Below, piece after piece: positions 2,041 to 45,107 of a stretch of DNA of 64,000 nucleotides. The stretch is from Escherichia phage I29. The notes below the pieces were generated by a model, which saw only the letters and a program-made list of their open reading frames with translations, was not told the DNA's origin and did no database searches. Made by a program: the position numbers and the translations under genes. The stretch is taken from the sequence record ON286975. The stretch is one strand, 5' to 3'. The number at the start of each line of letters is the position of its first letter. Position 1 is the stretch's first letter.

Positions 2041-5000
2041 TTACTTCAGTTTCTCTTGCAACCCAGTAACAACCTCTGTCAATTTTTTAACCTGCTCCTC
2101 AAGGGCGGTTATTTTATCGTCCTGTTCCCTGCAAACCTGGACAAGCAAGCCTGTTACAGCTGCATAGTCAACGTTATAGAATCTTTCCTCAGTCATCAGA
2201 GGGGTGCCGTCTTGAGTAGGCCCTGGAACCTCTTTCCTTTGCACGAAAGACCCAACCGCTTCTGGTAATGCTTCCATAACTTCTTGAGCAATTACCCCTG
2301 CGTAAGGCATACCATTCTCTTTTAAAGTATAGGTATAGCCTTTCATCTTCCGGATAGCTTCTACAGCGTTAGGTATGACCTCGATATTATCCTTCAGGTC
2401 ACGGTCAGAACTTTGACTAACAGTGGTGCATTCTACTGCACCATTGACAGCAAAATATCTTGATTTGGCCTCATCTGTCTTGGCCCCGCAATGGAATACC
2501 CAGTTGGAGAGTGTTGAGTTATCACTTATCTGGAACTCAAGCACATTCTTCCGGTCTGCACCATTGCCCCAATAATATAACCTACCTGTATTAGCAGGTA
2601 TGTTGGAACTGTTGCCAACAGTAGCTCCGCCGCCAGTGTGGATTATAAACTCTGGGTCAAGATTCGAACCTTGAGTTTTCAAAGTGATCCCTTTGCCACC
2701 AAGCTGCTGCCAAGGTCCCCATGTGAAAACACTACCTATTGTTGTTCCATAACGCAGGAATTTTTCCCCAAGATATGATACATATTCCTGCACACAGCTC
2801 TCAGGCACGTTGGCGTAATTCCTGTACACAATAAGTGTACCTGCCTGAGCACAAGGGTAGTTTCTCTCCGGAGTGGCCTGAGCATTGGCCTCTTGGTGAT
2901 AAAAACCCTCTCTATCCCCTTTGTAGTCGTTAAGGTCATTAGTTCCCAACCCTTGACCACGGTGCTGAATAACTTTGTTCCACGCTCTGTGGTTTCCCTG
3001 CTCTATGGAACGAGTGTACAGCTGGTCTAAACGACCTGCCATCTGGAAAGCGTAGTTTCCAGAAAAACCAACCGACAACCCTGCTACAACCATGGAACCT
3101 TCAGGTCCGTTGACGTTACCAGCCATTATTTTAGAAGGGTTGTTATTTCCGAACTGGTTGTTCCAGTCTGCACCTGTGTGGCATACAAAACCACCAGGAG
3201 CTGAGAAAGTGCCATCTTTGTTGAAGTTGTAGAATTTGTGAGCAGAACCTACAACATCACGAACAATAACTTGACCAGCCTCTGGAGTAGATCTGAACTC
3301 TGCCTGTCCTTTGAGACCAGCACCATTACCGCATTTAGAGGTAAACGTACCGTTAGTCAGATCCTCTGTCCCATCTGATGCACACTGGAAGCCTGCATTA
3401 GAGAATAACGCCTTTCTAGGACTGCCGTAGCACAAATAGTTAAGACCGTCTGCCCATAGCTCGACTTTTGGCATATTCATTTTGCTCATCACAGCATAGC
3501 GTTCAGCAGTGCCTATATAGTGCCACTGTGTGCCGCCACCAGTGTAGAACCCTGAAGTCCCTTTGAAGTCAACAATAGGTCTGGTGTTGGTATTATTATC
3601 TCCAAGAACAGCAAGATTCAAATCTGCTGACTGGAGAGGTGCAACGAACTTAACACCGTCCTGATTGTCTGTTACAGAGCCAACCTGGTAATCTTGCTCC
3701 CTGGTAAACACCTCGACAACATTTCTACTTGCGTATATGCTGACAGGGAAAGCACGCGCCTCTGCATAGAAAGCAACATATTCTTGTTTACCCCTTGTTG
3801 GAGCAACCATCCCAAGAAGTGCTTTTTCATTCTGGTAGAAATTTACTACCCCGTAGAAAGAGTCTCCTCTGTCTGTCCAACCACCAGTTCTATAGTGACA
3901 CTGTAAGGTCGCACAGTTCATAGGGTCATTTCCAGATGAAGACCTGGTGACTATAGTAATATCTGTACCTGTCGAAGGGGCGTAATACGGATCTGTTCTA
4001 ACGATGATTGGGTAGTATTTCCCATCTTCCATCCCTGCGGTTCTTGGCAGTGTTAAGAAGTCTTTTACACCTGCTGCTATAGGAACTTTGAACAGATTCT
4101 GAGCATCTGCTAAAGTTGTAGCCCCAGTGCCACCTGCGGCTTGAGGTAGAGGTTCCCACTTGGCCTTCCGGTTGTTATAAACACCCCATTCAAGCGTTCC
4201 TTCACCTTGCTCGTCCATACCGCCATCCCAGACAACCATCTTGGCGGCTTTCTTGGACCCCCAGAAGCCTCTTTCTGCCCCTGAACTACGGATCCACTCT
4301 CCAAGTCCCCAGTTTGCCAGCTGACCGTTCAGATCACCAACCTGCATATATTTAGGACAATCTAAGACCCCATCCTCACGGAAGCCTAAATAGCTATGAG
4401 TTTCAGATCCTTTTGCGCCTTTGTGCAGGTGGATTGTCAACCAAGCCTTATTGTCGTTTCTTACCTCAGAGTAGATCCTATACCCATGCTCAAGGACACC
4501 GTCAGCGCCGTATTTATCCCCATGGAGAATACCTGATGGAGACTTAACCTCAGAAGTGCTTTGAGATAGGTAAAGGTGCCCGAAGGTAGGGGTATTTCTA
4601 GACCCGAGACCGATGTGCGATCTAAAGGTATCATCGTTACGAGGTCTGACCATCGGCTGCCATGCAGTCCACTGATTTGTGTTGGCCTGATAGGTTCTCA
4701 AATACCAAACATCTACGTTAGAGAATGGATAGTATTCCTGACGACAACCTGTACCGCCGTTAGCATTGTTCTGCCAGACAATCAAGTGACCAGCACCAGA
4801 ACCTGCAGGGTAACCATTTGCCTCAGTTGCATAAGCAGTCATCGGCTGGTAGTATACACCATCCTGATTACCAGTCAAGTTATTGATATTGAAATTTGGC
4901 TCAAGGGCTGCACGTTGCTTATAGAAAGCACCGATATTGATACGGACTCCAGCGGCATCTCTAGCCCCTGTGCCGCCTTGCTCTATAGCAAGAGGTTGCC

Positions 5001-39368: not shown

Positions 39369-39651
39369 GAAACCTGCAAAAGAGAAATTTGATAAGACAG
39401 CTTTTGTATTCGATACACCTCTGGACGATATCATCAGAGGTATGCAAGCCTTGTATCGGAAGTCTGAATCTGAGCAGTTGTCGGAATCAGAGCTTTACTG
39501 GTTGGGTTGGTGGGAGCTTAATCTACCTAAAGCTGAAAGCTCTGATCTAAAAACCGTTAAAACGTGTGCCCAAGAAAATGCTGCACTTGGAATTTACCAC
39601 AAAAGAAAAAGATCAACAAAAAGCTCTCCAAGAAAGACTAAAAAGTCTTGA
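39358..39651 (+). CDS. hypothetical protein
   Basis: 97-aa ORF, basic C-terminus. Confidence 0.35.
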   Translation: MMAKKPAKEKFDKTAFVFDTPLDDIIRGMQALYRKSESEQLSESELYWLGWWELNLPKAESSDLKTVKTCAQENAALGIYHKRKRSTKSSPRKTKKS

Positions 39652-39677
39652 CAAATGAGTCTCTGATCTGATATTAT
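39648..39677 (+). promoter_or_regulatory. sigma70-like promoter (TTGACA-18-TATTAT)
   Basis: TTGACA at 39648-39653, TATTAT at 39672-39677; downstream AGGAGAACTAGGT-ATG start of 39711 gene. Confidence 0.5.
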
Positions 39678-39710: not shown

Positions 39711-40019
39711 ATGCTTAAAATTTTTATTGTTGAAGATAAAGATATCGTCCAGTTGTATGCAAATGAGAATCACAAAGGTATGATTCTGAAGAAGGCAAGC
39801 AACCTTCATGAAAACACAATTCAACCTGGCGATGTAATTAAGATCTGTGGCTATCTGATACCAGACTCCTTGATGAAAATAACCCACCACTGGGGGTCTA
39901 ATCCGTTCCTTTTTGAAAAGTATTGGGATGTTGAGTCACTTATTGCAGAAAGTGATGATGCATTTCATTACAGCATCCAACCATCTTGCAGAGTAACTAA
40001 CAGGAGGGGCTTTGAGTAG
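39711..40019 (+). CDS. hypothetical protein
   Basis: 102-aa ORF with RBS. Confidence 0.4.
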   Translation: MLKIFIVEDKDIVQLYANENHKGMILKKASNLHENTIQPGDVIKICGYLIPDSLMKITHHWGSNPFLFEKYWDVESLIAESDDAFHYSIQPSCRVTNRRGFE

Positions 40020-41151
40020 AGAATATCCACTTATTGAATCTGTAGATTGTCTTGCTGATCTTCTCGAACCTGACGCTATAGTTTATTATGACTTCGACCA
40101 GGTTGCATATCAAGCTGCGGCAAGTTGTGAAAAAAGGACAATTGAGGTAACACACAAAGCCTCCGGACGCAAGAAGATGTTTAAAACACGAACAGAGTTC
40201 TGGGGGCGGCAGAAGAACACCGTTGGTGGTTGGTTAAAAGCTGAGAATACCAACCGTGAAGCCGCATGTAAAAAGGCTGGAAAGGAGTTTATTCCGTGGA
40301 CACGCGAAGATTTCGATGTCTTGGATATCCAAACCCCTGATCCTGTAGAGAACTGCTTACACACAATTAAGTGTAAAGCTAATGCAGTTCTTAACTATCT
40401 AGGTATTCCGGAAGAGCGATGTGTCGGGGTGTTGGGAGGCACAGGTAACTTCAGACTAGATCTTCCAATGCCGGAAAGATACAAGGCCAACCGTAACAAT
40501 ACTCTTCGACCACTGCTGCTTGGAGATGCAAGACAGTATCTACAAAAGCAGTATAATGCTCAAGTGATCAACGGTATCGAGGCTGACGACTGGTTAGCTA
40601 TTCAGCAATTTGAAGGTTGGAACCACTACCAAAAAACAGGTAAGTTCAACAAGTTTATTATCTCTATTGATAAGGACCAAAGAACACTACCTGGGCTTGT
40701 GTTCGATCCCATGCGAAACGATAAGGGGGATTTTGTAAGGGAAACCCCTATGCTGATCGATAACGGTATGGGGAACATCTTCATGAAGCCTAATGGAGAG
40801 GTTGGTGGTTACGGAATGCTGTTCTTCGGATACCAAATGCTGTGTGGTGACTCTGCTGACAACATTAAGCCGTATCAAGGACTTATCGGTAAGGGTAAGT
40901 TCGGGGATGCCTCAGCATTCTACCTACTGTCTCAGTGCAGCACTCCAAAGGAGATGTGGGTGGCTATTATTGATCAGTACAAGAAGTGGTTCCCGAAAGG
41001 TGTTGTTAAGTATACTGACTTCAATGGTGTTGATCGTAGAATTTCCGTAGGTCAATGGATGAGTATAATTTTTGACTGTTTGTATATGAAGCGAACATTC
41101 AATGATCAAACAAAACTTGTTAACGTTCTTAGAAATGTTGGAGCAATTTGA
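40012..41151 (+). CDS. 5'-3' exonuclease / flap endonuclease (RNase H-like, FEN family)
   Basis: 379 aa; H3TH-type motif LCGDSADNIKPYQGL. Confidence 0.6.
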   Translation: MSREYPLIESVDCLADLLEPDAIVYYDFDQVAYQAAASCEKRTIEVTHKASGRKKMFKTRTEFWGRQKNTVGGWLKAENTNREAACKKAGKEFIPWTREDFDVLDIQTPDPVENCLHTIKCKANAVLNYLGIPEERCVGVLGGTGNFRLDLPMPERYKANRNNTLRPLLLGDARQYLQKQYNAQVINGIEADDWLAIQQFEGWNHYQKTGKFNKFIISIDKDQRTLPGLVFDPMRNDKGDFVRETPMLIDNGMGNIFMKPNGEVGGYGMLFFGYQMLCGDSADNIKPYQGLIGKGKFGDASAFYLLSQCSTPKEMWVAIIDQYKKWFPKGVVKYTDFNGVDRRISVGQWMSIIFDCLYMKRTFNDQTKLVNVLRNVGAI

Positions 41152-41483
41152 TGACTAAAAATTCTGTAGATAATGCAATTATGGAAGCTGTTTTTGAGGA
41201 TGATCATACAACAGGGACCATTAAAACAAAAAATACATTTATTGTTGCCACAGGTATGTGGCGGTTGTATGAAGATGACACTATTTCATACATCCTGTAC
41301 ACGGATGATTACGCAGATGACCGTGTATGGTCTGCTGTTTTAAAAGAGGATTGTGAGCTGATTGAGGGCGAGCGGTTATGCATGTTCACCAGTGTGGAAA
41401 CAGATGTTAAGCTTTGCTCTCTCGTCCTGTTCAAAGATAAGGCTTATGCTCCTGATGAAGGAGAGGAGGATGAGGAAGCATGA
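41148..41483 (+). CDS. hypothetical acidic protein
   Basis: 111-aa ORF, Glu/Asp-rich C-terminus. Confidence 0.4.
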   Translation: MMTKNSVDNAIMEAVFEDDHTTGTIKTKNTFIVATGMWRLYEDDTISYILYTDDYADDRVWSAVLKEDCELIEGERLCMFTSVETDVKLCSLVLFKDKAYAPDEGEEDEEA

Positions 41484-42109
41484 GAGAGCGTCTATTATCC
41501 ATAGACCAGTCGTTGACACACACAGCTTGCGTTGTATGGGACGATGGAAAGCCTGTTCACAAGGTTGTGTTACGAACTCAAAGCTCATCTGCAAAAGAGA
41601 AGAAACCAGGGACGGTTTCTTTTGCAACAGCTGCTGAGCGTATTGACTGGATCTGCAAACAGGTCAGATATTATATCCACACGCACCACGTTGACACCGT
41701 GGTTATGGAAGGGCTTTCCTTTGGATCACGCGGGGATGCCACACGTGAACTGGCTGGGTTGTTTTACGGTCTCGAAGTTATGCTTTGGGATGCTTTAGCT
41801 GATTGTGAAAATGACGGCCTGTTTAAGGTTCACACAGTGACACCAACAACTGCCAAAAAGTTTGCTCGTAGTCATCTTCCTGAGGAACTTGCTTTTGAGG
41901 AGAAGAAAAAGCTTGACAAAAGGACAGGTAAAGAGCATACTGTGAAGAAACCTGTTACGATGGATAAAAAGTTGATGGTTAAGGCCTGCGAAGTATCTGA
42001 ACCTGGGTTCCTAGATGGGATCAATTTGGTACAAGGTAAGGCCGATCTTGCAGATGCTTATTGGATAGGCAGGGCGCATCTGGAGGGATTATCGCAAAGC
42101 GTAAAATAA
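41480..42109 (+). CDS. RuvC-like Holliday junction resolvase (putative)
   Basis: 209 aa; N-terminal LSIDQSLTHTACVVWDDG and C-terminal DAYWIGRA resemble RuvC-fold catalytic segments (inference). Confidence 0.5.
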   Translation: MRERLLSIDQSLTHTACVVWDDGKPVHKVVLRTQSSSAKEKKPGTVSFATAAERIDWICKQVRYYIHTHHVDTVVMEGLSFGSRGDATRELAGLFYGLEVMLWDALADCENDGLFKVHTVTPTTAKKFARSHLPEELAFEEKKKLDKRTGKEHTVKKPVTMDKKLMVKACEVSEPGFLDGINLVQGKADLADAYWIGRAHLEGLSQSVK

Positions 42110-42666
42110 GAAAGAAAGCTGTCAAAGCTCCCGTTCATAACGGGTGGTTAAAAGATTCTAAGGACATAGCCAACTTTCGAAAAGAATTGTCAGAGGAGCA
42201 GGATGGTCTTGATCCAATCTTGTGCGAGCCACTTCGTAAGCCTTGTTTAGATCATGATCATCTGACTGGTCGTTGCAGGGGTGTTTTGTCTCAATGCACT
42301 AATACCTTTGAGGGGTATGTGCTTAAATACTGGATGAAATACTGTAACGAGTATACAGATTGCAGTTTATCAGAGGCGTTGCGCCGGATGGCTGACTATT
42401 TGGAGAAAGACTACAGCGACTTCCCGCTCCACAAAAACTACAGAGATGATATGACAAAGTTCTTGAGGAGATGCTCTAAAGCTACGATCATTGCACGAGC
42501 AGAATCAGATCTCAATCTTGTCATTAATCCGGAGTGCACCAAGCATGAGGCTATTGAGTTCTACATGCAGGAGTTTATAAAGAAAACTGAGGAGAGAGAT
42601 TTCTATGGGGATGAAAAAGGTATTCAATCCTTGCGACTCAGTCCTGATCAGGATGAAATACCGTAA
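42061..42666 (+). CDS. endonuclease VII-like (T4 gp49 family) HNH nuclease
   Basis: 201 aa; CLDHDHLTGRCRGVLSQCTN matches the DHDHxTGxxRGxLCxxCN signature. Track start is TTG and overlaps the RuvC-like gene by 49 nt, so the true start is uncertain. Confidence 0.6.
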   Translation: MDRQGASGGIIAKRKIRKKAVKAPVHNGWLKDSKDIANFRKELSEEQDGLDPILCEPLRKPCLDHDHLTGRCRGVLSQCTNTFEGYVLKYWMKYCNEYTDCSLSEALRRMADYLEKDYSDFPLHKNYRDDMTKFLRRCSKATIIARAESDLNLVINPECTKHEAIEFYMQEFIKKTEERDFYGDEKGIQSLRLSPDQDEIP

Positions 42667-42826
42667 CTGGAAAGGTGTTGTTGCAGATCGCTGCGTTACT
42701 GAGCCTAATTTATGGTTTGGCTCTACAGAGTATCATAAAGAAGAGCAGTGGTTGATGCGTGCCTTCGATGTAGACAAGGGCGAATATCGTGACTTCGCTT
42801 TAAAAGACATTCTTCAGTTTTACTAA
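42605..42826 (+). CDS. hypothetical protein (start uncertain)
   Basis: 73-aa ORF overlapping the endonuclease VII-like gene; internal ATG at 42653 is an alternative start. Confidence 0.3.
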   Translation: MGMKKVFNPCDSVLIRMKYRNWKGVVADRCVTEPNLWFGSTEYHKEEQWLMRAFDVDKGEYRDFALKDILQFY

Positions 42827-42838
42827 GGAATCTTAACG

Positions 42839-43822
42839 ATGATGACAAAGTTAACTCTTGAGCAAATTTTAACACTAAAGCAACAGGGATACACTAATAG
42901 ACAAATTGCTCGTGAATTTTTAGGCCGTGAGTCACGTGAGAGCTGGATCCGACTACAGCTTAAACGTGCACAAGAGAATATGTCAGAGATTGTAGGAGAA
43001 GCAACGGAGCGCTTCCTTGAAGAGCACAAAGGCGCTAAAGTTTGGGTGTATGATACAGAGACATCCCCAACAAACGGCTGGTTCTTTGGGCACTATAAGA
43101 CCAACATTCAAACCTGTGGTATTGAAGTTATGCCTTATATGCTAACTTTCGCAGGTAAGTGGTTAGACAGCCCTAGTGTGGTTGACTGCGCTCTTCCCGA
43201 TTACAAAATGTGGGATGAGGATATTCACAATGATCTCGAATTGATTCAGGATTTGTGGTATTATCTGGATAAATGCGATGTCGCAGTAGCCCACAATTCA
43301 GGTTTTGACTGCGGGTGGGCCAACCAACGATTTGCATTTCACGGGTTGCCTCCAACAAGCCCCTACAAAGAGGTTGACACCCTTAAAATGATCAAGAAGG
43401 CATTCCGTTTGAATGCAAACACTTTGGAGTATGCATGCAAATACTTCCAACTGGCCAGACAGAAACTGATTGATCACACATTTGAAATGTGGATCAAGTG
43501 TGTCCATGGCGATCTTGAGGCATTTAAACAGATGCGGGAGTATAATGTTGGTGATATCCTGTCTCTGGAAGGACTGTATTTGCTGGCTCGCCCGTTTGCT
43601 AAGCAGCACCCAAACATGTCATTGTACTACCAGGACGAGGAGCCAAAGGTTCGTTGCCCACGCTGTGGTGGAGAACACCTTCACGAGGAAGAAGCTTTGG
43701 CATATACTCAGCTGAGTGCATTTAAAACATACCGCTGCGAAGGTTGTGGATCTGTTGTTCGTGACCGTAACAACATCCGTACCAGAGAAGAAATGAAAAA
43801 CACCCTGATTCAGATAATCTAA
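42839..43822 (+). CDS. DEDDh-type 3'-5' exonuclease (DnaQ-like) with N-terminal HTH-like segment
   Basis: 327 aa; Exo I VWVYDTETS, Exo II AHNSGFDCGW, Exo III YNVGDI; C-terminal CxxC...CxxC. Confidence 0.65.
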   Translation: MMTKLTLEQILTLKQQGYTNRQIAREFLGRESRESWIRLQLKRAQENMSEIVGEATERFLEEHKGAKVWVYDTETSPTNGWFFGHYKTNIQTCGIEVMPYMLTFAGKWLDSPSVVDCALPDYKMWDEDIHNDLELIQDLWYYLDKCDVAVAHNSGFDCGWANQRFAFHGLPPTSPYKEVDTLKMIKKAFRLNANTLEYACKYFQLARQKLIDHTFEMWIKCVHGDLEAFKQMREYNVGDILSLEGLYLLARPFAKQHPNMSLYYQDEEPKVRCPRCGGEHLHEEEALAYTQLSAFKTYRCEGCGSVVRDRNNIRTREEMKNTLIQII

Positions 43823-43837
43823 CAATTATAGGGAGGC

Positions 43838-44686
43838 TTGCGCCTCCCTTTTCCTTTTGGAGGCACTTTGAGCAAGAAAGAGTCCAACGACAAATATTAC
43901 ACAAACCCTGAGTATGCAGAATATCTTGTTGGTAAAGTAAAAGATAAGTATGGAAATTGTGCATACGTTGAGCCTTCTGCTGGAAGAGGTTCTTTTTCAA
44001 AACTATTTTCAGAGATACTGTCGTACGATTTAGTACCAGATCCTGAATTTGAAGGGCCAACACCGTGCATTCAGGCAAACTTCTTGGAGGTGCACCCCAA
44101 GGCAGATGTCTTCATAGGTAACCCACCATTTGGCAAGAATTCATCTTTAGCTTGCAAATTCTTCAACCATTGTGCATCATTGCTAGAGCTTGGAGGGGCC
44201 ATAGCCTTCATCTTGCCACGGACATTTGAAAAAATATTTTTTGCAAACAAATTGGACATGTCGATGCACCTTGTCTACAGCGAAAGGTGCCCTAAGAATT
44301 CGTTTTTACTTAATGGCAAACCTTATGACGTGCCGTGTGTTTTCCAAATTTGGGAGAAAAAGGCGTGTAATAGGGATCCTGTAGAGATTGGAGAGAATAA
44401 GTTATTTTCTTTTAGCACTCCAGATGACTACGACTTCTGTGTAAGACGTGTTGGGTATAATGCTGGAAAAGTATTGGGGGATGATGACCCAAAATCTGAA
44501 GAATCGACATATTTCATAAAATCTTTAGTTGACGGTGTTGACAGAGTGTTTTCTGAATGCTATTCTTCTTTTCAAGAAGAAGCAGGTAAGACTGCCGGAA
44601 TGAAGAGTATAGGCAAGAAAGAACTACAATACATTTTGGAGACCAGGTATGATCAAAAGCATAGACTTGACCAAAGAACTCACTGA
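43838..44686 (+). CDS. DNA amino-methyltransferase (N6-adenine or N4-cytosine), orphan
   Basis: 282 aa; motif I VEPSAGRGSF and motif IV GNPPFG. Confidence 0.7.
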   Translation: MRLPFPFGGTLSKKESNDKYYTNPEYAEYLVGKVKDKYGNCAYVEPSAGRGSFSKLFSEILSYDLVPDPEFEGPTPCIQANFLEVHPKADVFIGNPPFGKNSSLACKFFNHCASLLELGGAIAFILPRTFEKIFFANKLDMSMHLVYSERCPKNSFLLNGKPYDVPCVFQIWEKKACNRDPVEIGENKLFSFSTPDDYDFCVRRVGYNAGKVLGDDDPKSEESTYFIKSLVDGVDRVFSECYSSFQEEAGKTAGMKSIGKKELQYILETRYDQKHRLDQRTH

Positions 44687-45107
44687 TGCGAAAGCTTTTG
44701 GTGAGACAGCGGTACAAAGGGGGCAGGCAATGGGACTGGCACTACCTTTCGTCTTAAAAGAGCACTTTACAGATTTTCAACTTATCAAGGGCGATAAGGG
44801 AATGCTTATCCTGGAGCATAAGTTGAGTAAGAAACGCTATAAAGTTGTTTTTAATTCTAAAGCTCCAACAAAACTGGGATTCAGAACTTACAATCTTAAC
44901 CCATCCTACACTAAGGGTGTTGGAAGGGTAGAACAACAGCATTTCAGTGCCAGAGCTTCTTTAGCCCCTTTGATGCTAAATTTCTCAGGGGTGGCTTTAG
45001 GATACCTTGATAAGAAAAGAGTTCTTCATGTCCGTTTCACAGACTTTGTAACGCTTTTAGCTAACAACGAGGTTGATGAAAAGGGACGTGTAAAAACAAA
45101 CTTCTAA
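44649..45107 (+). CDS. hypothetical protein (start uncertain)
   Basis: 152-aa ORF overlapping methyltransferase end by 38 nt. Confidence 0.35.
   Translation: MIKSIDLTKELTDAKAFGETAVQRGQAMGLALPFVLKEHFTDFQLIKGDKGMLILEHKLSKKRYKVVFNSKAPTKLGFRTYNLNPSYTKGVGRVEQQHFSARASLAPLMLNFSGVALGYLDKKRVLHVRFTDFVTLLANNEVDEKGRVKTNF

Follow-up and report, generated by a model that had tools for sequence, protein, structure and literature searches.

Adjacent RuvC-like and endonuclease VII-like genes in a conserved Vequintavirus nuclease operon, and a probable ATC start for the second gene

Escherichia phage I29 carries, directly next to each other, genes for homologues of two different Holliday junction-resolving nucleases, which raises the question of why a phage should keep both and how the second of them is translated. 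To approach this, a stretch of 64,000 nucleotides from this phage (sequence record ON286975, hereafter the window) was analyzed. A RuvC-like protein of 209 residues is encoded from an ATG at 41480-42109, and a homologue of phage T4 endonuclease VII (Endo VII) is encoded in an open reading frame (ORF) that extends from a TTG at 42061 to 42666 (201 residues); both are on the plus strand. An earlier note, made from the letters of the window, had described the pair and an overlap of 49 nucleotides between the two genes. The coordinates proved correct, and the 49-nucleotide overlap holds only if the TTG is used. The analysis showed that the pair of nuclease genes is ancient and conserved in a known phage family, where it is already annotated in part, and is not a new kind of system. 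Two variant details were of moderate interest: a probable AUC start of the Endo VII gene with coupling to the RuvC-like gene, and an Endo VII without the zinc site of its T4 counterpart.

Positions 40000-44700 of the window shared 99.4% identity with Escherichia phage navn (Vequintavirus) and 90% or more with 120 phage records, nearly all of them Vequintavirus (rV5-like myoviruses of ∼137 kb), and the finding therefore belongs to a well-sampled phage family. In the literature, no paper discussing the rV5 pair or the ATC start was found.

Start codon of the Endo VII gene

In the window, the conserved domain is preceded by one canonical start codon, TTG 42061; the canonical codons that follow it, TTG 42187 and TTG 42220, both lie within that domain. 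The earlier statement that the ORF has only a TTG as possible start was thus accurate for canonical codons. It did not extend to the conserved start, which is most likely ATC 42091. To locate this start, the gene junction was aligned for 18 distinct lineages in which the Endo VII gene is adjacent to the RuvC-like gene. All 18 lineages contained a GGAGG (GGGGG in two of them) followed by ATC or ATA. The distance from this Shine-Dalgarno (SD) sequence to the ATC/ATA codon was 4 nucleotides in 16 lineages, 5 nucleotides in locus L091 and 6 nucleotides in locus L026. The GGAGG occupied positions -9 to -5 relative to the ATC/ATA in 14 of the 18 lineages, and GGGGG was present there in two more. In the window the GGAGG (42082-42086) precedes ATC 42091-42093 by 4 nucleotides, and the ATC is located within the last 19 nucleotides of the RuvC-like gene. 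The codon between the SD sequence and the ATC/ATA was variable (I, P, C, F, Y, D, S, A or K), as would be the case for a spacer.

Several relatives carry a canonical codon at the homologous start. In L092, where the gene also overlaps the RuvC-like gene, ATG GCA AAA AGA (MAKR) takes the place of ATC GCA AAG CGT (IAKR) in the window, and an ATG was also present at this position in L023 and L028. The CR8-type phages have GGAGG, 6 nucleotides and a GTG, and the Aeromonas phages AGGAG, 5 nucleotides and a TTG. In Vibrio phage vB_CoeS_P1 the homologous start reads GGGAGGaatATG, with the same GGAGG element ahead of a canonical codon. Upstream of the site, the frame was found to be closed or devoid of starts in a number of genomes. 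In KP12, 4MG, pEp_SNUABM_01 and L022, the stretch from the preceding stop in this frame to the conserved basic N-terminus contains no ATG, GTG or TTG. The Endo VII frame opens one codon ahead of the ATC in L026 (GGAGGTAAGTAATC) and three codons ahead of the GGAGG in L010 and L034.

The codons downstream of the ATC/ATA were examined for signs of coding constraint. In five Seunavirus-type genomes, the stretch past the RuvC stop and before any canonical start had synonymous-only and amino acid-changing columns in a ratio of 9:3 in the Endo VII frame, and of 1:10 and 1:10 in the other two frames. A comparison of L006 with L024 resulted in ratios of 9:1 in the Endo VII frame and 0:11 in the other frames. 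By these counts, purifying selection acts on the N-terminal codons past the ATC/ATA in the Endo VII frame only.

The RuvC stop codon was located between -2 and +16 nucleotides from the ATC/ATA (42107-42109 in the window). Stop and ATC/ATA overlap in several lineages, in the form TAATC, TAATA or ATAG, and these are counterparts of TAATG and ATGA, the well-known motifs of translational coupling. The translation-initiation region of the Endo VII gene is carried by the sequence that encodes the last ∼8 residues of the RuvC-like protein (EGLSQSVK). Among relatives, this tail differed in both length and sequence; in the structural model it follows the final helix. It is free to act as a ribosome-binding site. 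Two curated genomes already have the Endo VII coding sequence starting at the ATC, 4 nucleotides past a GGAGG and with a 19-nucleotide overlap: PVP-SE1 (gene 126, ADP02521.1) and GAP31 (GAP31_151). These starts are annotations for which no experimental support was found, and the rV5-type records, which comprise the nearest relatives of the window, use the TTG.

As the SD sequence and the ATC/ATA are conserved, relatives have canonical codons at the same site, the downstream codons are constrained and the TTG is a poor start, we place the start of the Endo VII gene at ATC 42091, with a probability of about 0.65. The resulting product (42091-42666) has 191 residues, and the overlap with the RuvC-like gene is reduced to 19 nucleotides. 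From the same comparisons we infer that the ATC is used in vivo.

A number of points weigh against this assignment. No N-terminal peptide, toeprint or initiation-profiling data were found in the literature, and the rV5 proteomics paper does not mention the Endo VII gene. The spacing of 4 nucleotides between the SD sequence and the start is short. The proposed start codon always encodes Ile, and the window alone cannot exclude that an Ile is conserved there within a longer product; this is excluded by L026, L010 and L034, with their closed upstream frames. A canonical TTG exists 30 nucleotides upstream and is used by most rV5-type records. In the Seunavirus-type relatives a downstream GTG with an AAGGA could give rise to a second, shorter isoform. 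Finally, junction cleavage by the two enzymes is predicted from homology, and differing roles are only proposed by analogy.

The rV5-type GenBank model, with a start at TTG 42061-42063, a 49-nucleotide overlap and 201 residues, appeared unlikely. It has in its favor that most Vequintavirus records annotate the gene in this way and that phage FBKp34 has a TTG at the equivalent place. The 20 nucleotides upstream of the TTG contain no SD sequence, and the curators of phage LL12, who assigned ribosome-binding sites to the neighboring genes, assigned none to the TTG-start Endo VII gene. The TTG results from conserved Tyr-Trp codons of the RuvC-like gene (taT TGg), and its equivalent is absent from KP12, 4MG, pEp_SNUABM_01, L022 and L024. 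L010, a relative with a 137-kb genome and a protein of 90% identity, has an in-frame TAG between the TTG and the SD sequence, four codons past the TTG. The residues that a TTG start would add (MDRQGASGG) were not conserved as protein.

Identity of the two proteins

The earlier note had named a failing profile search as the observation that would speak against the RuvC-like assignment. Such searches gave a divided result: the protein matched PHROG 159 ('RuvC-like Holliday junction resolvase') with E=6.7e-39, and had no match in Pfam even at E<=1, by which the assignment would, on a strict reading of the note, have failed. Direct sequence searches in NCBIfam and the PDB also resulted in nothing useful, and because direct matching in these databases and in Pfam gave so little, evidence from structure and from homologues of homologues was needed. 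Pfam RuvC (PF02075) was matched by 4 of 21 homologues, with a best E of 1.8e-6. When a profile of the family was compared with PDB sequences, Deinococcus radiodurans RuvC appeared at no better than E=0.12. An AlphaFold2 model built from the 21 homologues had a predicted local distance difference test score (pLDDT) of 92 and a predicted template modeling score (pTM) of 0.88. In a Foldseek search of the PDB, ranks 1 to 11 were taken exclusively by RuvC resolvases, at E values between 1e-7 and 1e-4 and target-normalized template modeling (TM) scores of 0.68-0.76. They included Thermus thermophilus RuvC (4ep4; E=1.3e-7, TM 0.72 normalized to the target), and other top matches were the RuvC proteins of D. 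radiodurans, Pseudomonas aeruginosa and Lactococcus phage bIL67. Escherichia coli RuvC (1hjr) was found at rank 14, behind Cas12c and TEFM.

Among 27 homologues, E77 was invariant and D9, D189 and D192 were kept in at least 90%. These residues are part of the motifs lsiDQS, vvmEGLSfG and aDlADAy, and when mapped by motif position they are placed as the acidic tetrad of E. coli RuvC (D7, E66, D138 and D141), which suggests that they are the putative catalytic set. The RuvC-like assignment was thus upheld by PHROG 159, the Pfam matches of the homologues, the model and the conserved acidic residues, and the product of 41480-42109 is, as far as the predicted structure can tell, a RuvC-fold resolvase. 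It shares fold and topology with known RuvC resolvases (T. thermophilus 4ep4/4ld0, E. coli 1hjr, bIL67 4ktw; PF02075), but its sequence is just 13-17% identical to theirs. It also has an insertion of ∼45 residues (∼131-175), an extra beta-hairpin plus a helix, which is missing from shorter relatives. An NCBI E. coli assembly contained a protein of 187 residues (P0053, N5V81_22020) with 88% identity to the RuvC-like protein over half of its length, and the assembly probably includes vequintavirus DNA.

The product of the second ORF is homologous over its full length to T4 endonuclease VII (gp49; PDB 1en7, 1e7l and 2qnf), and the endonuclease VII-like assignment of the earlier note holds. Its product matched Pfam PF02945 with 31.6 bits (gathering cut-off 23.6; E=1.5e-7) and PHROG 423 with E=6.4e-37. 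A phmmer search of the PDB gave T4 Endo VII (1e7d) at E=3e-4, over T4 residues 37-147 of 157, and no other significant match. The AlphaFold2 model had a pLDDT of 88, and T4 Endo VII was again the sole Foldseek match in the PDB (E ∼1e-6, 152-157 aligned columns, target-normalized TM scores 0.67-0.74; next match E=0.76). The protein consists of a basic N-terminal extension (residues 1-18), a core, a C-terminal helical domain and a disordered tail. Both the sequence and the structure alignments extend into the intertwined-dimer domain of T4, which shows that the C-terminal helical domain is present. The fold and the catalytic residues are the same as in T4: the equivalents of T4 D40, H41, H43, R54, N62 and E65, whose roles in T4 Endo VII have been described (PMC6083498), were invariant in all 39 members of the clade. 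In the numbering from the ATC these residues of the beta-beta-alpha-Me core are D54, H55, H57, R63, N71 and E74.

The motif DHDHxTGxxRGxLCxxCN, which the earlier note had given for the ORF, was inexact. The actual sequence is DHDHLTGRCRGVLSQCTN, in which the 'LCxxCN' of T4 is replaced by 'LSQCTN'. In contrast to T4 Endo VII, the window protein lacks the canonical zinc ligands: the positions of the T4 ligands C58 and C61 are occupied by Ser and Thr. Throughout the 39-member clade the C58 equivalent was S, G, N, E or Q and the C61 equivalent V, T, I or L, and neither was ever Cys. The segment that contains C23 and C26 in T4 is shortened. Three alternative Cys positions were kept in 33, 29 and 21 of the 39 members (54-85%). 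The Zn(Cys)4 pattern, CX2-4C upstream and CX2C downstream of the DHDH, was accordingly not found in the clade. This pattern has been called 'highly conserved' among 313 proteins with the Endo VII motif, and the T4 mutants C23S and C61S were inactive (PMC6083498). As the zinc motif is absent here, is highly conserved elsewhere and its Cys residues are required in T4, the clade represents a real structural variant.

Further differences to T4 Endo VII were found at both ends of the protein, which has a basic N-terminal extension of ∼18 residues and a disordered C-terminal tail. Residues 1-18 (42091-42144) are rich in Lys and Arg (IAKRKIRKKAVKAPV), contain a recurrent RKKPV motif and were modeled with low confidence. 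The basic character of the extension was conserved across the clade, and one idea is that it provides additional DNA binding that makes up for the missing zinc module. The gene arrangement also differs: in the window the Endo VII gene is located directly 3' of the RuvC-like gene, and T4 is not known to have a RuvC gene. Within the Endo VII homologues, one protein of 446 residues (P0160) had a LAGLIDADG-like segment (Pfam PF14528, E=0.0015), for which either an intein or the insertion of a homing endonuclease into an Endo VII gene could account.

It was considered whether one of the two proteins might not be a junction resolvase in vivo, the RuvC-like protein being an RNase H-type primer remover instead, or the Endo VII-like protein a homing or other HNH-type nuclease. 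The records of navn and Murica label the first gene 'RNaseH', and the protein has no direct Pfam RuvC match. The closest structures, however, are RuvC resolvases and not RNase H enzymes. RNase H enzymes were absent from the Foldseek list, in which RNase T came no higher than rank 24 (E=2.9e-3), and the positions of the acidic tetrad are those of RuvC. Since both the structure matches and the acidic residues point to RuvC, the 'RNaseH' label is too generic. For the second protein, the catalytic motif is also found in homing and restriction enzymes (PMC6083498), and in this clade the zinc site is missing, which in T4 Endo VII is required for DNA binding. Against this, the protein aligns with the whole of T4 Endo VII, its C-terminal helical domain included, and has no other match, and unlike a homing gene its gene is syntenic and vertically conserved. 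We regard a function other than junction resolution for either protein as quite improbable.

Translation at the gene junction

A third possibility for the start was that translation begins further downstream, at a GTG in the Seunavirus-type phages or at TTG 42187 in the window, and that the basic N-terminal region is an untranslated leader. Gene callers pick this GTG in KP12, 4MG, Mydo and NINP13076, where an AAGGA is located 9-12 nucleotides upstream of it. The sequence upstream of these GTGs nevertheless evolves as coding sequence in the Endo VII frame only, as described above, and where relatives have a canonical start, the basic region is part of the coding sequence. No canonical start precedes the catalytic core or a conserved Trp in the window, FBKp34 or L022. 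A downstream start was therefore judged very unlikely as the general one; in the Seunavirus-type phages the GTG could still provide the shorter second isoform.

Hardly any weight was given to a RuvC-Endo VII fusion made by programmed -1 ribosomal frameshifting near the RuvC end, which would fit the -1 frame of Endo VII at all RuvC-adjacent loci analyzed (except Vibrio phage L009 and the split RuvC of L021), the opening of that frame 9-15 codons upstream of the GGAGG in 5 of the 6 RuvC-adjacent phage-collection loci first examined, the possible stimulation of frameshifting by the SD-like GGAGG as in dnaX, and the A AAA TAA at the RuvC stop of the window; it was rejected because no X XXY YYZ slippery heptamer occurs in 42040-42109, -1-frame stops lie 1-3 codons before the SD sequence or the ATC in L026, L010 and L034 and leave no room to shift, another gene stands between the two in CR8-type phages, W70 and the Aeromonas relatives, and no fusion was present among the best 150 of 1715 representatives, whose lengths did not exceed 211 residues save for one protein with a LAGLIDADG insert. 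That protein, P0160, was the sole long match and does not contain RuvC, so that a Rosetta-stone fusion was dismissed as well. A regulatory RNA hairpin at the junction was also rejected, as the predicted fold of 42040-42140 was no better than that of shuffled sequences (z=0.02).

With a start at ATC 42091, translation of Endo VII is probably weak and coupled to that of the RuvC-like protein. Ribosomes that end RuvC translation at 42107-42109, or that bind the strong SD sequence, would initiate inefficiently on AUC 42091, and the output of Endo VII would be low and linked to translation of the RuvC-like gene. Initiation in E. coli at AUC, AUA or AUU reaches ∼1-2% of the AUG level, and non-canonical starts have been confirmed there for no genes other than infC and pcnB (bioRxiv 10.1101/063800). 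At such a rate of initiation, each transcript would yield much RuvC-like enzyme and a trace of Endo VII. The infC and pcnB genes are comparable to the phage gene in that they have an AUH-class start codon (H being A, C or U), which in their case keeps expression low. They differ in that they use AUU, whereas the phage codon is AUC or AUA; its location within the 3' end of the preceding cistron suggests coupling. No sign of an IF3-type autoregulation was seen in the phage.

A reason for such restraint may be found in the properties of the T4 enzyme. We take T4 Endo VII to cleave many branched and mismatched structures, to be required for DNA debranching prior to packaging, to be under complex translational control in T4 and to be harmful if over-produced. 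As a broad-acting enzyme that does harm in excess, it would make sense to restrain. By analogy with T4 gp49, the RuvC-like enzyme would resolve recombination junctions and Endo VII would debranch DNA generally before packaging. Such a division of labor, which the earlier note had already suggested, would fit the long co-retention of both genes with intact catalytic residues. The co-retention argues against simple redundancy, without showing a division of labor. In its most complete form, the proposal is a hard-wired junction-processing unit, in which a zinc-less Endo VII is translated only from AUC/AUA by ribosomes leaving the RuvC cistron, at a ratio of RuvC-like protein to Endo VII of ∼50-100:1; we put this forward tentatively and would not bet on it in full.

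Two further observations concern the expression of the pair. A promoter-like sequence (TTGACA-17-CATACT, 10 of 12 consensus matches) is present at 41913-41941 inside the RuvC-like gene, ∼150 nucleotides ahead of the start of Endo VII; the sequence, recognized by pattern matching only, could provide a separate Endo VII transcript. In L021, an IMG/VR sequence similar to Raoultella phage Ro1, the RuvC-like gene (2424-3046) is split into overlapping frames, with matches to the hidden Markov model (HMM) at 2424-2915 and 2738-3046, and the downstream GGAGGatatATC and Endo VII gene are intact. The split may be a sequencing error or a natural pseudogene, and a pseudogene would bear on the dependence of Endo VII expression on RuvC.

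The nuclease operon in the Vequintavirinae and their relatives

Seven cistrons, closely packed on the plus strand, form an operon of replication and recombination nucleases, in which the RuvC-like and Endo VII genes occupy places 4 and 5. Cistron 1 (39711-40019) encodes a small protein of phrog_14449, which is labeled 'transposase' or 'transposase-like'. It is followed by a FEN/T5 D15-like 5'-3' exonuclease (40012-41151; phrog_107, PHROG E=2.6e-71), which is named 'exodeoxyribonuclease' in relatives, and by a small conserved ORF of phrog_7583 (41148-41483; function unknown), whose stop overlaps the ATG of the RuvC-like gene as ATGA. Downstream of the Endo VII gene, a small conserved ORF of phrog_3715 with weak WYL/SH3-like similarity (42605-42826) overlaps the Endo VII 3' end, and a DnaQ-like 3'-5' exonuclease with a C-terminal zinc ribbon is the last cistron (42839-43822; PHROG 403, E=2e-110). 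In a pattern scan, the seven cistrons were found to be flanked by a candidate sigma-70-like promoter at 39648-39677 (TTGACA-18-TATTAT, extended TG, 11 of 12 consensus matches; a pattern match only) and by an intrinsic terminator-like hairpin at 43830-43849 (8 bp, 6 of them GC, then a T-run), both on the plus strand. The ATG at 42605 of the phrog_3715 ORF has a GAGGAG upstream, and its overlap of 62 nucleotides is with the disordered, non-conserved 3' tail of Endo VII; the MiataMamis record starts this ORF at ATG 42653 instead, which leaves an overlap of 14 nucleotides.

The same gene order was observed in Vequintavirus, Seunavirus (4MG, PVP-SE1 and GAP31), Mydovirus, Henunavirus and KP12, as well as in Stephanstirmvirinae (FBKp34) and in Vibrio phages with ∼30% protein identity. 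The recurring order is 5'-exonuclease, small ORF, RuvC-like gene, Endo VII, small ORF and DnaQ-type exonuclease. In Certrevirus (CR8), W70 and the Aeromonas Plateaulakevirus one additional gene is present between the RuvC-like and Endo VII genes. A match to the RuvC-like HMM was located within 3 kb of the Endo VII gene in 33 of the 35 loci L001-L035 (missing in L023 and L035) and in none of the 54 loci L036-L089. In total, the RuvC-like gene was found in 302 phage records. By this comparison, the nuclease operon is ancestral to the Vequintavirinae and their relatives. A recent acquisition of the pair, which the earlier note had offered as an explanation, was ruled out by this synteny, as the pair and its neighbors are syntenic in every subfamily examined, down to ∼30% protein identity.

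Existing annotation already covers part of the finding: Pharokka-style records (MiataMamis, PS17B-2 and the K54_rec series) name both a 'RuvC-like Holliday junction resolvase' and an 'endonuclease VII'. Downstream of the operon, the ORF at 43838-44686 belongs to phrog_799 and has methyltransferase similarity (weak Eco57I/MTS matches in Pfam); its longest form starts at TTG 43838, and the records use position 43868. The navn record names both this ORF and that at 44649-45107 'putative DNA N6-adenine methyltransferase'. The latter belongs to phrog_9938 (unknown function) and has no methyltransferase similarity, and since only 43838-44686 has such similarity the label on the second ORF is probably a propagated error. 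Twenty unannotated MG0656xx records of 'Campylobacter phage' (host Campylobacter jejuni) were ∼98% identical to E. coli vequintaviruses in this region, and their host labels look doubtful.

For annotation, these results mean that most Endo VII starts in rV5-type records are probably wrong and that the GTG model of related genera is truncated; the ATC start already given for PVP-SE1 and GAP31 should be carried over to these records. The homologous start site, which alternates between AUC, AUA, AUG, GUG and UUG, provides a natural series for the study of start-codon strength and coupling. If the two nucleases do form the unit proposed above, this would be a deeply conserved case of natural non-AUG initiation for stoichiometry control in an E. 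coli phage, and a tractable system to address why a virus needs two resolvases. The Endo VII clade without the zinc cluster of T4, kept beside RuvC throughout the history of the family, is likewise a system in which redundancy and specialization of phage resolvases may be tested against each other.

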